Part shown: one piece after another, positions 60,020-64,000 of the stretch | How positions within the stretch are numbered: position 1 is the stretch's first letter | How the letters are laid out: every line of letters begins with the position of its first letter | Source: an uncultured Clostridia bacterium | GTDB taxonomy: Bacteria; Bacillota_I; Bacilli_A; RF39; UBA660 | Direction of reading: 5' to 3' | NCBI GenBank assembly: GCA_945871105.1 | Contig: CAMBUO010000005.1 | Location: 10,217 to 74,216, forward strand | DNA length: 64,000 nt | Notes under the pieces: generated by a model | The model's input: the letters and a program-made list of their open reading frames with translations, nothing else | Database searches by the model: none | What the model was told of the DNA's origin: nothing | Translations under genes and position numbers: made by a program

Positions 60020-60898
60020 ATGTTAATAATTGGATCACATGTTAGTTTTAATAAAGAAAAACAATTAATGGGAAGTTTAGATGAAGCTTTATCATATGGA
60101 TCTAATACTTTTATGTTTTATACAGGAGCTCCTCAAAATACTAAAAGATATGAAATAAATGATAATTTAACTAATCATGCTTTAGAAAAAATGAAAAATA
60201 ATAATATTGATATTAATAACATTATTGTTCATGCTCCATATATTATTAATCTAGCTAATGATAAAGAAAACGATAAATATGATTTTTCTATTAATTTTTT
60301 AAAACAAGAAATAGAAAGATGTGAAGAATTAAAAATATCTTATTTAGTTTTACATCCAGGTAGTCATGTTGGTTTAGGAATAGAAAAAGGAATTAATAAT
60401 ATTATTTATGCTTTAAATGAAGTTTTAAAAGATGATAAAAATGTTACGATTCTTTTAGAAACAATGGCTGGAAAAGGAACTGAAGTTGGAAGTAATTTTC
60501 AAGAATTAAAAGCAATAATTGATGGTATTGATAAAAAAGAATTGATTGGTGTTTGTATGGATACATGTCATTTAAATGATAGTGGTTATGATATAACAGA
60601 TTTTGACAGTATATTAGATGAATTTGATCGTATAGTCGGTTTATCTTATTTAAAATGTATACATATTAATGATAGCAAGAATATTAAAGGTGCTAAAAAA
60701 GATCGACATGAAAATATTGGCTATGGAACAATTGGCTTTGATACATTAATTAAGATTATTTATAATCCAAAATTAGATAATATTCCAAAAATCTTAGAAA
60801 CTCCTTATATAAATGATAAACCACCTTATAAAGAAGAAATAACTATGATAAGAGAAAAAAAATTTAATGATAATTTAAAAAATCTGTTTGAAAAGTAA
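60020..60898 (+). CDS. nfo: Endonuclease IV
   Basis: IGSHVS, HAPYIINL, VLHPGS, CxDTCH and ETP segments of the AP endonuclease 2 family are present. Confidence 0.85.
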   Translation: MLIIGSHVSFNKEKQLMGSLDEALSYGSNTFMFYTGAPQNTKRYEINDNLTNHALEKMKNNNIDINNIIVHAPYIINLANDKENDKYDFSINFLKQEIERCEELKISYLVLHPGSHVGLGIEKGINNIIYALNEVLKDDKNVTILLETMAGKGTEVGSNFQELKAIIDGIDKKELIGVCMDTCHLNDSGYDITDFDSILDEFDRIVGLSYLKCIHINDSKNIKGAKKDRHENIGYGTIGFDTLIKIIYNPKLDNIPKILETPYINDKPPYKEEITMIREKKFNDNLKNLFEK

Positions 60899-60922
60899 AA
60901 AAAAGTATGTTATAATTAAGAT

Positions 60923-61110
60923 GTCTAGATAATTTGATACATTGTTAGTATAAATCCTACAGAAAATATTATACGGGAATCCTGATCAATAGTTGGTGTT
61001 GAATGCTTGAGTGTGAGTTCTCGAGAATCCTAAAAACTAGTATGGATACCCACCTGATTATAAATCGGGTTTAATTCGCCAATGGTCGGTTTTCTGGATG
61101 TAAAAAAGTG
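60923..61110 (+). ncRNA. Candidate structured RNA or long 5' leader of the sigma factor gene
   Basis: An extended -10 element (TGTTATAAT) lies at 60908..60916. The region is locally GC-enriched. ATCC(TA)CAGAAAA at 60954..60966 can pair with TTTTCTGGAT at 61090..61099. GAATCCTGATCAATAGTTGGTG at 60977..60998 can pair imperfectly with CACCTGATTATAAATCGGGTTTAATTC at 61051..61077. Confidence 0.3.
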
Positions 61111-61195
61111 TAAATAAGAAATAGTAATTTGACACTTATTGTCGAACCTATTTCTTTTTCTTTACACTTATTATATATTCTTCATGGTGATAGAA

Positions 61196-61831
61196 ATGAA
61201 TGAAGAGTTAAAAGAATTAATTATTAATAATCAAAATTTAATCTATAGTATTGCTAGTAAATTCAAAGGGGATAAAGAAGATCTATTTCAAGCAGGTTGT
61301 TTAGGATTACTTGATGCTTATAAAAAATATAATCCAAATTATAATACAAAGTTTACAACATATGCTTATCCTTTTATAATGGGAGAAATGTATAAATATG
61401 TTTTAGGCGATAAAAATATTAAATTATCTCCAGAAATTGTTAAATTAAATATAGCTATTAAAAATGCTGAAGATTATTTAACACAAAAATTTAAAAGAGG
61501 ACCTACCGATATAGAATTATCTAGTTTTTTAGAAATACCAGTTTATAAATTAGTTGAAACTAGAAATTGCTATCAAACTTTAAGTTTAGATGATGATACA
61601 AATGAATCTAGTTTATATGATTTCGTTAGTTCAGATGATGTTTCTAAAGATGATTTAATTCTTTTAAGAGATGCTCTAAATAGGTTAGAAGCAAAAGAAA
61701 AAGAATTAATTATTAAAAGATATTTTTACAATAAAACTCAGCAAGAAGTTGCTAACGAATTAGGTATTAATCAAGTTAAAGTTAGTCGAGAAGAAGGAAA
61801 AGTTTTAACTAAATTAAAAAAATATATGTAA
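61196..61831 (+). CDS. Group-3 sigma-70 family sigma factor (SigF/SigG/SigB-like)
   Basis: DLFQAGCLGLLDAYKKY, TYAYPFIMGEMYKYV and the region 4 segment TQQEVANELGINQVKVSREEGKVL are present. A GGTGA RBS precedes the ATG at 61196. Confidence 0.75.
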   Translation: MNEELKELIINNQNLIYSIASKFKGDKEDLFQAGCLGLLDAYKKYNPNYNTKFTTYAYPFIMGEMYKYVLGDKNIKLSPEIVKLNIAIKNAEDYLTQKFKRGPTDIELSSFLEIPVYKLVETRNCYQTLSLDDDTNESSLYDFVSSDDVSKDDLILLRDALNRLEAKEKELIIKRYFYNKTQQEVANELGINQVKVSREEGKVLTKLKKYM

Positions 61832-61859
61832 AAATATAATTCTATGTTATACTTAAAAA

Positions 61860-62351
61860 GTGGAGGTAGAAATGAGTAAATTTTGTTCTAATTGTGGCAA
61901 AGAGATTCCAGAAAATAGTACATTTTGTCCTAGCTGTGGAACCTCAATAGGAGGAACTAATTCAAATCAAAATAATAGTAATAATACTAGTATTAATGCA
62001 CCTGTATTAGAATATAGGGATATAGCAATAGCTATTATTTTATCAATAGTAACTTGTGGTATCTATGGAATTTTTTGGATTATTTCTTTAACTAATGATG
62101 CTAATAAAGTTTCTGATCGTCCAACTGATACAAGTGGTGGTATGGTCATATTATTAACACTTATAACTTGCGGTATTTATGGTATCTATTGGAACTATAA
62201 AATGGGTCAAAAAATATATGAAGCAGGACAAAGATATAACAAATCAATTAGCGATAATTCAGTTTTATATTTAGTATTATCTCTTTTTGGTCTAGCAATT
62301 GTAAACTATGCTTTAATGCAAAGTGATTTAAATAAGTTTTCTAACAAATGA
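61860..62351 (+). CDS. Zinc-ribbon plus DUF4234-like membrane protein
   Basis: CSNCGKEIPENSTFCPSCG is followed by two TCGIYGI(F/Y)W repeats. Confidence 0.6.
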   Translation: MEVEMSKFCSNCGKEIPENSTFCPSCGTSIGGTNSNQNNSNNTSINAPVLEYRDIAIAIILSIVTCGIYGIFWIISLTNDANKVSDRPTDTSGGMVILLTLITCGIYGIYWNYKMGQKIYEAGQRYNKSISDNSVLYLVLSLFGLAIVNYALMQSDLNKFSNK

Positions 62352-62728
62352 AAAAGCGATTAATTAAAATTATATTATTAAATACTTTAATAGTTATCAT
62401 TTCATTGATTTATTATTTTATTAATAAATATTTTTATATTGGTATTCCTTGTTTATTTTATCAAATAACAGGTTTAAAATGTCCGGGATGTGGAATTACT
62501 AGATTAATATTTTCGTTAATAAAATTAGATTTTAGGCAAGCATTTTTCTATAATCCTTTAGTCTTTATTTTATTACCTTTTATTGTTTTTTATATAATTT
62601 ATCAAGAATATTTATATATTACTAAAAAAGAAGATAAAATAATAAAAAAGATACCAAGTTATATTTACTATGTATTAATTATAATTTTAATTATCTATGC
62701 AATACTTAGAAATATCTTTGTTTTTTAG
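62348..62728 (+). CDS. DUF2752-like membrane protein
   Basis: CLFYQITGLKCPGCGITR is followed by TM segments. Confidence 0.55.
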   Translation: MKKRLIKIILLNTLIVIISLIYYFINKYFYIGIPCLFYQITGLKCPGCGITRLIFSLIKLDFRQAFFYNPLVFILLPFIVFYIIYQEYLYITKKEDKIIKKIPSYIYYVLIIILIIYAILRNIFVF

Positions 62729-62793
62729 TCTAAGCAATATTTTATTACATAAAATTAATTATGAATAAGATATTGCTTTCTTTTATATTAACT

Positions 62794-63100
62794 AAGTATA
62801 GCAGGTTTATCAACTATTCTTGGTTATTTTATTATTTACATAAAAGGTAATAAAAATAAAATTATTTCTAGCCATTGCTAGTGGAGTAATGTTAACTATT
62901 TCTGTAACTGATCTTATACCATAATCTTTTACTTATTTAAAAGATTATAATTTCTTTTTTAGATTATTATTAATTACCTTTTCTTTTATTTTAGGAATAT
63001 TTTTATCATATTATATTTCTTTAAAAGTAGAAAAAGAACATACTAACTATTAAAAAAAATAGGAAGCTATTATTTTACATAATATACCGGAAGATTGTAG
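62794..63100 (+). pseudogene. Decayed ZIP (ZupT-like) metal transporter gene
   Basis: The fragments SIAGLSTILGYF, LAIASGVMLTISVTDLIP* (TAA where Glu is expected) and AIILHNIPE lie in different frames. No intact start or end is present. Confidence 0.6.
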
Positions 63101-63137
63101 TTACTATGTATCATAATTGAAATATTTGTTTAAAATA

Positions 63138-63178
63138 AAAACTACCAAGATAATTTATATTATTATTTTGGTAGTTTA
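63138..63178 (-). terminator. Terminator downstream of the toxin gene
   Basis: The stem AAACTACCAA / TTGGTAGTTT is followed by a T-rich run when read on the minus strand. Confidence 0.6.
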
Positions 63179-63195
63179 TTGAGTTTTTGTAAGTG

Positions 63196-63666
63196 TTATT
63201 TCAATTCGTCTTCCATTTGTTTTTTGATTTTATCAATATCAGTAAAGAAAAAATTAAGACCTTTCTTTTTTAATTTTAACATTTGTTTAAAATTTTCTAG
63301 AATTTCATCACAAGTTGTACTAATAACTTTCGCAGGTTTGCCATTGTCCAAAACGTGTGCATGATCAATATATTTTTCTAATGTTGGAAATGCATTTTGG
63401 ATTAATATAGCTGATTCATTACCTAAAATATCTCTAATAAGGATAGAATTACAAACACCATATTTTTCCATTTTTTTATCAACTATCTTTTTATATTTAT
63501 CTACTTTACTACTAAGTGGGATAAACCATAATATATCTTTATCTTTTATAGTAAAATAAGTTGGACGTTTTTTGCCACGTTCATGATTTGTCATTAAATT
63601 TTCATCATTTACTATATCAAAAAATTCATCTTTAATATGATATAAATATCCAGTTTCTATTTTCAA
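63196..63666 (-). CDS. Type III toxin-antitoxin toxin (ToxN/AbiQ-like endoribonuclease)
   Basis: A 156-aa protein with the (F/L)Y-x-(I/V) N-terminus and the W-F-I-PLSSK segment typical of ToxN/AbiQ-like proteins. It uses a TTG start 10 nt after AAGGAG. Tandem RNA repeats and a terminator lie immediately upstream. Confidence 0.7.
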   Translation of the reverse strand: MKIETGYLYHIKDEFFDIVNDENLMTNHERGKKRPTYFTIKDKDILWFIPLSSKVDKYKKIVDKKMEKYGVCNSILIRDILGNESAILIQNAFPTLEKYIDHAHVLDNGKPAKVISTTCDEILENFKQMLKLKKKGLNFFFTDIDKIKKQMEDELK

Positions 63667-63699
63667 TTAGTATCAACTCCTTGTGTATATCATTTTATC

Positions 63700-63739
63700 A
63701 TAAAACAAAAGAAAACTCCATTATATTAATAGAGTTTTC
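63700..63739 (-). terminator. Terminator between the antitoxin repeats and the toxin
   Basis: Read on the minus strand: GAAAACTC, a 13-nt loop, GAGTTTTC, then TTTTGTTTTAT. Confidence 0.7.
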
Positions 63740-63740
63740 A

Positions 63741-63850
63741 AAACATTTTCGTTCGGGATAATTTATTACTCGCACCACCCGAGAGCGAGAAACATTGTCG
63801 ACCGGAATAATTTATTACTCGCACCATCCGGGAGCGAGAAACATTTTCTT
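63741..63850 (-). ncRNA. Candidate type III antitoxin RNA: two full 49-nt tandem repeats plus a partial third
   Basis: Units start at 63741, 63790 and 63839 (the last is partial). Each unit has a CTCGC/GCGAG hairpin and a second helix supported by compensatory changes between the units. Confidence 0.75.
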
Positions 63851-63878
63851 CTTAAAGCACTCTTTCAAATGCAATAAT

Positions 63879-63907
63879 AATATACTATATTTCATGCAAA
63901 AAGTCAA
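63879..63907 (-). promoter_or_regulatory. Sigma-A-type promoter of the repeat-toxin transcript
   Basis: Read on the minus strand: TTGACT, a 17-nt spacer, then TATATT. It lies about 30 nt upstream of the first repeat. Confidence 0.6.
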
Positions 63908-64000
63908 TAAAATCGGCAAATTTTCATTTGCATTAATATTATATGAAATTAATTATTTTTTAAACATAATATTAATATAAATTTCAATTATTACATAAAA

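Follow-up and report, generated by a model that had tools for sequence, protein, structure and literature searches.

A probable CptIN-family type III toxin-antitoxin module with covarying antitoxin repeats in an uncultured gut member of the Bacilli

The stretch of DNA described here (hereafter, the window) comprises 64,000 nucleotides (nt) of an uncultured Clostridia bacterium, placed by GTDB within Bacilli_A, RF39 (assembly GCA_945871105.1, contig CAMBUO010000005.1, positions 10,217 to 74,216 of the forward strand). Close to its right end, on the minus strand, a small toxin gene, cptN, is preceded by a promoter, a tandem array of short RNA repeats, and an intrinsic terminator. It is highly probable that this locus is a complete and intact type III toxin-antitoxin module of the CptIN family, with a function that is read from the family. 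CptIN systems are already known, and the locus is an ordinary member of the family which adds no new mechanism. The following were established in the present analysis: (i) the family of the protein; (ii) the anatomy of the locus; (iii) two RNA helices, by covariation; and (iv) the conservation of the unit boundaries, the promoter, and the terminator. From promoter to downstream terminator, the features of the module are:

63879..63907, minus strand: sigma-70-type promoter, with the -35 box TTGACT (63907..63902), a 17-nt spacer, and the -10 box TATATT (63884..63879); 10/12 consensus matches
63857..63872, minus strand: short leader hairpin GCAUUU-GAAA-GAGUGC, placed at the 5' terminus of the predicted transcript, with ~10 nt between it and the first unit boundary
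63798..63846, minus strand: CptI unit 1, 49 nt, AAAUGUUU-CUCGC-UC-CCGGA-UGGU-GCGAG-UAAUAAAUUAU-UCCGG-UCGA (nhmmer E 4e-18, Tandem Repeats Finder (TRF), and covariation of stems S1 and S2)
63749..63797, minus strand: CptI unit 2, 49 nt, CAAUGUUU-CUCGC-UC-UCGGG-UGGU-GCGAG-UAAUAAAUUAU-CCCGA-ACGA (nhmmer E 1.7e-17)
63739..63748, minus strand: partial third unit AAAUGUUUUG, which restores the GA^AAAU boundary after unit 2
63701..63739, minus strand: intrinsic terminator between the array and cptN, with a 13-bp stem, a 3-nt loop, and a U-run (hairpin 63739..63711)
63677..63682, minus strand: ribosome-binding site AAGGAG, 10 nt upstream of the TTG, as read from the sequence
63196..63666, minus strand: cptN toxin gene, 156 amino acids (aa), TTG start (NCBIfam NF047359, PDB 4RMO, AlphaFold/Foldseek)
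63128..63177, minus strand: hairpin and T-run terminator downstream of cptN, with a 16-bp stem (bidirectional hairpin 63139..63177)

A preliminary description of the locus, made from the letters alone, had listed on the minus strand the promoter, the two 49-nt repeats with a partial third, the terminator, and the 156-aa open reading frame (ORF) with its TTG start, and each of them was found where it had been placed. Its reading of the locus as a toxin-antitoxin system of type III was likewise correct, in view of the match to the CptIN model, the conserved repeats, and the covariation of the pseudoknot. What distinguishes cptIN was found here: (i) a CptN homologue with a (predicted) Kid-like fold; (ii) a tandem array; (iii) a Rho-independent terminator; and (iv) an H-type pseudoknot with an A-rich loop L2.

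The toxin is a CptN and not, as had been proposed, a ToxN/AbiQ-like protein. It matches the NCBIfam equivalog NF047359 ("type III toxin-antitoxin system CptIN family toxin") with 158.7 bits (cutoff 90; E 9e-47; profile positions 1-150 of 150). When the protein was compared by phmmer with the sequences of the PDB, only the CptN of Eubacterium rectale (4RMO_A) matched (E 6e-20, residues 6-150), and ToxN/AbiQ chains were absent at E <= 10. The AlphaFold model of the toxin (predicted local distance difference test 81.9) had 4RMO_A as its best Foldseek match (template modelling (TM) score 0.79, E 5.7e-10), followed by toxins of the CcdB/MazF/Kid fold, with no ToxN or AbiQ structure among the 50 matches listed. 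This ranking, obtained with a predicted structure, is in line with the published observation that CptN is more similar to Kid than to ToxN (Rao 2015, PMC4627078). The profile and structure searches against the toxin families, suggested in the preliminary description, pointed to CptN, and neither ToxN nor AbiQ appeared among the matches listed.

In the alignment with 4RMO, the PLSS motif, R34-P35, E84, and S85 fall on S51/S52, R30-P31, E84, and S85 of the E. rectale toxin (CptN-Er), and they are invariant or nearly so across the clade. The ORF is full length, with all the family-invariant residues present. The toxin has 2783 homologues at E <= 1e-3, and the identical 156-aa protein is encoded on 22 independent contigs. 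No homologue of the toxin was found in phage records. Among plasmids, the only matches were distant CptN-like ORFs (33-39% identity, annotated as hypothetical), carried by small plasmids from Clostridium perfringens, Megamonas funiformis, Planococcus, and Virgibacillus; cptIN was found only on chromosomes in the survey of 2012 (PMC3401426).

The antitoxin array is detected by TRF as a repeat of period 49 with 2.1 copies and 89% matches (63741..63845). A profile built from sequence only places the units at 63846..63798 and 63797..63749 and a partial AAAUGUUU after them. The register of the units was set by analogy with the G44-A45 3' end of the E. rectale antitoxin (CptI-Er); in that register, the full units read AAAUGUUUCUCGCUCCCGGAUGGUGCGAGUAAUAAAUUAUUCCGGUCGA and CAAUGUUUCUCGCUCUCGGGUGGUGCGAGUAAUAAAUUAUCCCGAACGA. 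They differ at exactly six positions, and copies identical to unit 2 are found in 12 locus-units elsewhere. Their boundaries in the window (marked by ^) are AGA^AAAUG, CGA^CAAUG, and CGA^AAAUG, and the same pattern is kept in homologous loci: (i) at the 5' edge of the first unit, G[A/U] precedes [A/C]AAU (GA in 47 loci, GU in 22); (ii) GA^CAAU stands between units in 61/75; and (iii) GA^AAAU follows the last unit in ~70/77 loci. The "2.2" copies of the array are accounted for by the additional stub, which supplies the last presumed cleavage site anew. To judge from the G44-A45>p end of CptI-Er, the precursor would be cleaved at these GA^ positions.

The homologous loci were collected by scanning one genome per species, which gave 365 loci; 80 of these, with 67-94% identity, were kept, and all of them belong to metagenome-assembled genomes of uncultured gut Bacilli or "Tenericutes" (humans, rabbits, deer, chickens, others). 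TRF found a repeat of ~2.2 copies, ending ~75 nt before the start codon, with a period of 49 nt in 37 loci and 51 nt in 20. The loci without a TRF call either contain two copies exactly or are truncated at the end of their contig. Since nearly all of the 80 other genomes have such a 49- or 51-nt array upstream of the homologous gene, the repeat is not a chance feature.

The signals around the array are conserved as well. A promoter could be located in 61 homologous loci, and in 59 of these it has the form TTGAC[A/T]-17-TATATT at the equivalent position. The leader hairpin follows the -10 box immediately; most homologous leaders are predicted to form one, with stems that vary (GCACU/AGUGC, GCAUU/AAUGC, UCCUU/AAGGA), and it may be a stabilising 5' stem-loop of the antitoxin precursor. 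Four terminator-like sites were found where shuffled sequences lead one to expect 0.2; a hairpin equivalent to the one between array and toxin gene, of varying stem sequence, was seen by eye at the same place in homologous upstream regions, and the terminator downstream of cptN is kept in two related loci, L005 and L083. The spacing GGAGTTGA-N6-ATG is common to the homologues.

The preliminary description had proposed, from the two units of the window, a CUCGC/GCGAG hairpin (S1) with a second helix (S2) between its loop and a downstream segment, that is, a pseudoknot. It had also counted six differences between the units, four of them forming two compensatory pairs in S2 (CCGGA/UCCGG versus UCGGG/CCCGA). 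Both observations hold, the pseudoknot being of the H type, and both the pairing and its compensation extend to 78 loci. The units compared were gathered with a sequence-only nhmmer profile, as a regular expression would have biased S1; this gave 154 full units from 78 loci, 86 of them distinct, which were aligned together with CptI-Er (alignment A2). In A2, 97.0% of cells are paired under the structure of 5+5 base pairs (bp), and shifting the 3' partner by 1-3 columns lowers this figure to 19.5-49.9%. These units are related by descent, so that the cell counts overstate the number of independent events, a point that counts against the strength of the case; the slid-partner control and the cross-unit control described below do not depend on the independence of the sequences. 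Two-sided changes are present in 8 of the 10 pairs (all five of S2 and three of five of S1), and none of 500 column shuffles matched the observed paired cells, double changes, or covariation score.

A comparison within loci holds phylogeny constant. In the 42 two-unit loci with differing S2, 4.94 of 5 pairs form inside a unit and 3.74 of 5 across units, and the inter-unit differences in S2 are mirrored exactly from column to column (21/16/12/1/28 in one strand and 28/1/12/16/21 in the other). Differences within an array cluster at position 1, at the two tail positions next to S2, and in the S2 strands, while S1, L1, and L2 almost never differ between units of one array. This distribution, which spares S1 and L2 but not S2, matches the crystal structure, where A-minor contacts lock S1 and L2 together and S2 only needs to be a helix. 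The comparison shows that S1, L2, and most of the tails are constrained in sequence, and S2 only in its pairing. Two further sets of pairings were considered and rejected: (i) the helices suggested by minimum free energy (MFE) folding (the 5' tail with L2, and a 2-bp helix in the loop) have no two-sided changes and cannot be distinguished from shuffles; and (ii) an S2 lengthened by one pair at either end is paired in 25% and 0%, respectively.

The structure to which this pattern corresponds is that of the 45-nt CptI-Er, an H-type pseudoknot. Its two stems are coaxial, L1 has 1 nt, and the A-rich L2 of 9 nt packs into the minor groove of S1, with A29 and the "kink" U30 as essential residues; CptN-Er leaves a 2',3'-cyclic phosphate on A45, after G44, and the complex is a ring of 2 protein and 2 RNA molecules (PMC4627078). 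The sequence of CptI-Er, AAGUUUACCACUGACCGAUAUGUGGUAUAUAAAUGGUCGGGUUGA, was obtained as the reverse complement of the reverse primer CptI-WT (Rao 2015, PMC4627078), and the residues numbered in that paper (G13, U23, G24, A27-G35, A29, U30, G44, A45) fit it, with the exception of "C6", which is a U. In the MAFFT alignment, ACCAC/GUGGU of CptI-Er falls under CUCGC/GCGAG, AUAAAU under AUAAAU, and the terminal GA under GA. Therefore, both RNAs have the same order: 5' tail, S1, L1, S2-5', linker, S1-3', A-rich L2, S2-3', and 3' tail.

The E. rectale system (4RMO, PMC4627078) and the window locus are alike in (i) a homologous toxin of the same fold (~33% identity; TM 0.79 for the predicted model); (ii) the order of promoter, ~2 tandem repeats, terminator, and toxin; and (iii) an H-type pseudoknot with 5-bp S1 and S2, an L2 core AUAAAU, a 5' tail (A)A(U)GUUU, and a 3' GA. 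They differ in length (unit of 49 nt in the window versus 45, 5' tail of 8 versus 6, L1 of 2 versus 1, linker UGGU of 4 versus ~2, and L2 of 11 versus 9), and the four net extra nucleotides fall in the tails, L1, the linker, and L2. Furthermore, the window units are not identical, and the host is one of the uncultured gut Bacilli instead of one of the Lachnospiraceae. The linker from S2-5' to S1-3' starts with UGG (A2 columns 21-23; window 63824-63826 and 63775-63777, minus strand), where the U is invariant and both G are conserved at >= 90%. It has no counterpart in CptI-Er, with its linker of ~2 nt, and reads UGGCUA or UGGCUU in 51-nt units; this UGG may be a clade-specific protein contact or a tertiary interaction.

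The 2012 survey of cptIN described 33 loci, all chromosomal, with repeats of 40-48 nt (mean 44.8) in 1.9-3.4 copies and toxins averaging ~149 aa (PMC3401426). The present locus shares with that family (PMC3401426, NF047359) the CptN homologue, the Rho-independent terminator before it, the tandem array before that, the chromosomal location, and the host group (Firmicutes). It departs from it in a repeat that exceeds the 2012 range by 1 nt (or by 3 nt in related loci with 51-nt units), in the very large size of its clade (2783 protein clusters and 365 species-level genomes, whereas 33 loci had been described by 2012), and in its association with a serine-recombinase element.

As for the ToxIN systems of P. 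atrosepticum and B. thuringiensis and the AbiQ/antiQ system of L. lactis, the principle is the same, i.e., a toxin that processes its own repeated RNA into inhibitory pseudoknot monomers, and so is the layout of promoter, repeats, terminator, and toxin. By contrast, the toxin belongs to another family (there is no ToxN/AbiQ family match, the ToxN of Pfam included), the unit has 49 nt and not ~34-36, and ToxIN pseudoknots have base triplexes and assemble into 3:3 heterohexamers, unlike the 2:2 ring of CptIN. The tenpIN systems with non-identical repeats (PMC12283969) also have about two non-identical units and a conserved A-stretch in the second half of the unit, but their toxin is TenpN, and the units of the present clade differ mainly by compensatory changes in S2.

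The proposed mode of action follows the CptIN family, from which cleavage at GA^, the stoichiometry of the complex, toxicity, and neutralisation are carried over by analogy. One promoter would drive a transcript that begins with the short leader hairpin and continues with the two 49-nt CptI units. The intrinsic terminator would stop most transcription, and read-through would yield cptN mRNA; because this mRNA would come only from read-through, the antitoxin RNA would exceed the toxin. CptN, as an endoribonuclease of the Kid/MazF fold, would cut the precursor at G-A^[A/C]AAU boundaries and release the two 49-nt units. Each unit would fold with (i) S1, CUCGC/GCGAG; (ii) a 5-bp S2, formed by the loop of S1 with the 3' segment; and (iii) the A-rich L2 lying along S1. 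As in the E. rectale complex, each RNA would bind two toxin monomers through its single-stranded 5' and 3' tails, and the result would be a closed, inactive ring of 2 protein and 2 RNA molecules. If transcription stopped, or if the RNA decayed faster than the protein, free CptN would cleave cellular RNA and growth would be arrested. The module may serve to stabilise the mobile element that carries it (CptIN-Er is reported to have stabilised a plasmid) or may act in abortive phage defence.

Next to the module, the following features can be differentiated:

62742..63093, plus strand: remnant of the 5' part of a ZIP/ZupT-type transporter gene, decayed by a frameshift and stops; its ~118 codons end at the HNIPE motif
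63094..63127, no strand: end of the inserted element, an attL-like junction directly after CCGGAAG at 63087..63093
63988..64000, plus strand: second copy of the ZIP upstream/5' segment, starting with TTATTACATAAAA, identical to 62742..62754 and running off the window

The decayed ZIP gene noted in the preliminary description was borne out: the fragment matches positions 16-91 of the 323 in the Pfam Zip profile (E 4.8e-5), which falls short of the gathering score, and is 91-95% identical in nt to the first ~375 nt of the intact ZIP genes of three closely related contigs (L082, L084, L086; tblastn E 2e-42). These contigs are 98-99.5% identical to the window up to position 64000 (99.5% for L086), and in them an intact 246-aa ZIP gene, directed away from cptIN, starts ~7 nt past the point at which the window ends. 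As the 13-mer 62742..62754 recurs at 63988..64000 (spacing 1246 nt) along with the ZIP 5' segment, the module lies between two direct copies of the ZIP 5' region. The nt similarity of the window to all 80 genome loci is limited to 63065..63999; therefore, only the module is common to the window and those loci. In L082 (2389-4416), two cptIN modules stand in tandem (toxins of 160 and 156 aa, ~78% nt identity) with a ZIP 5' remnant after each, which suggests repeated insertion or recombination at one site. The genes next to this patch, at 60020-62728 of the window (plus strand), have the look of housekeeping or membrane genes and code for a protein of the AP endonuclease 2 family, a sigma-70 family factor, a zinc-ribbon/DUF4234 protein, and a DUF2752 protein; their Pfam labels were taken from the near-identical contigs L081 and L084.

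The contigs with the identical toxin show two arrangements, that of L082, L084, and L086 and that of L083. L083, and also the genome locus L005, have, upstream of cptIN, a 533-aa large serine recombinase (75% identity between the two proteins), which in L083 matches Pfam Resolvase and Recombinase. The L005 element splits ZIP at the HNIPE|G codons, and its left junction, CCGGAAG|ATTGCATAAGTTATGTATCA, matches CCGGAAG|ATTGTAGTTACTATGTATCA of the window, where intact ZIP reads CCGGAAG|GAATTATTAC. A divergent ZIP gene lies directly upstream of cptIN in 9/80 species-level loci, which supports the earlier remark that the locus sits in an accessory patch. The recombinase is not present within the window. 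We infer that cptIN came as cargo of a small, ZIP-integrating serine-recombinase element and that, in the lineage of the window, the recombinase was later lost and an intact ZIP copy was restored by some rearrangement. An empty insertion site was not found: no record has the exact DUF2752 neighbour, and a metagenome scan with the intact ZIP protein returned no relatives.

The two units of an array often differ in this clade. Differing S2 helices are found in 42/66 two-unit arrays: CCGGA/UCCGG followed by UCGGG/CCCGA in 14 loci, mostly of separate species-level genomes, and CUGGA/UCCAG followed by CCAGG/CCUGG in 11. Likewise, the first nucleotide is A in first units and C in internal units (50/52 distinct arrays). 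In the 2025 survey, cptIN repeats were called "nearly identical" (PMC12283969). It is conceivable, although we think it rather doubtful, that the two units are kept deliberately different, each with its self-consistent S2, and that the module is the cargo of a minimal large-serine-recombinase element that integrates at ZIP-HNIPEG. If so, the difference between units could avert mis-pairing between neighbours while the precursor folds, or it could give an asymmetric 2:2 complex with one RNA of each kind. Both the non-identity and the association with the element could also result from neutral drift and ordinary mobility. The two go slightly beyond published descriptions, and neither changes the mechanism.

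Several observations weigh against a complete and intact CptIN module. The searches that found no match were those of the toxin in Pfam (no family at E <= 1, ToxN included) and PADLOC, and the scan against Rfam (no family; best MCS4, with 24 bits against a gathering score of 56). The folding of single units, which the preliminary description had advised, gave no significant nested structure (z -1.2 and -0.3); nested folding cannot represent a pseudoknot, and nested MFE folding misses the crystal fold even for CptI-Er. The comparison of homologous loci, advised along with it, did find the pairings and the repeats preserved. In the active site, S52, S53, R34, E84, and S85 are conserved, yet R53, D81, and Y104 of CptN-Er align with K54, L81, and H104: residues that specify the scissile adenine in CptN-Er are exchanged (D81 for L81 and Y104 for H104), as is R53 for K54. 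On account of these substitutions, the active site can be verified from sequence only in part, and the chemistry and specificity of cleavage may differ in detail from those of CptN-Er. The TTG start codon (63664-63666), immediately preceded by an in-frame TAA, is found only in the window, the other 79 loci examined having ATG (77) or GTG (2); since nearly all homologues use ATG, expression and toxin translation in this strain may be low. Finally, as regards a role in defence, two cptIN loci gave no protection against six coliphages in Escherichia coli (PMC3401426), and for that reason such a role is not established for the CptIN family.

Some of these points would suit a decaying relic, with a toxin no longer expressed or active and vestigial repeats. 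The sole TTG start among 80 loci fits such a relic, as does the rearranged patch beside a ZIP pseudogene fragment in a window that lacks the recombinase. TTG is, in any case, a legitimate start codon in Firmicutes. Decay is very unlikely, given (i) the full-length ORF with all the family-invariant residues, on 22 independent contigs; (ii) the perfect pairing of S1 and S2 in both units, with intact boundaries; and (iii) the intact promoter, terminator, and ribosome-binding site. The preliminary description had gone in another direction and taken the 49-nt unit, together with a ToxN/AbiQ-like toxin, as the possible mark of a distinct, fourth type III subfamily. The unit had seemed unusually long because it was compared with ToxI/AntiQ (34-36 nt) and not with CptI, whose repeats have 40-48 nt and whose 45-nt E. 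rectale form has the same architecture. It is true that 49 nt lies 1 nt above the range of the 33 cptIN loci of 2012 and that related loci have 51 nt, that the linker has 4-6 nt (~2 in CptI-Er) and L2 11 (9 in CptI-Er), and that neither Pfam nor PADLOC recognises the protein. Nevertheless, the scores on the curated CptIN equivalog and on 4RMO, the helix-for-helix alignment with CptI-Er, with the AUAAAU core and the GA 3' end in common, and the confinement of the 1-6 nt length differences to tails and loops make this subfamily highly improbable and largely refuted.

The position of the array, directly upstream of a terminator and a gene as in riboswitch or attenuator leaders, raises the question of whether the repeats act in cis to control only the transcription or translation of cptN, instead of being a trans-acting antitoxin; the best near-misses in Rfam, none of them significant, were indeed leader or small RNA families. 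This explanation is extremely improbable, as the element repeats periodically, each unit edge carries a conserved boundary of the cleavage type, and a homologous RNA has been crystallised together with its toxin. Besides, the folding of the precursor shows no conserved pairing between the units and the terminator. Sequence is constrained at the E. rectale tertiary contacts (S1 and L2) and in the tails, save for two positions adjacent to S2, and S2 is free, which fits a folded ligand rather than alternative terminator/antiterminator pairings.

The value of the locus is confirmatory and comparative. The 86 distinct CptI units of this one clade covary in a way that bears out, independently, the pseudoknot seen by crystallography. 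Comparison could not supply such support earlier: according to the 2012 survey, no alignment of CptI sequences was possible (PMC3401426). The pattern of covariation also separates the parts of the RNA that are constrained in sequence (S1, L2, and most of the tails) from the part constrained in pairing (S2). CptIN is very common in uncultured gut Bacilli and, considering this together with the two loci that gave no phage defence in E. coli, its role in these bacteria is worth testing. As to how the family may travel, the association with a serine recombinase offers a concrete route for the spread of cptIN.

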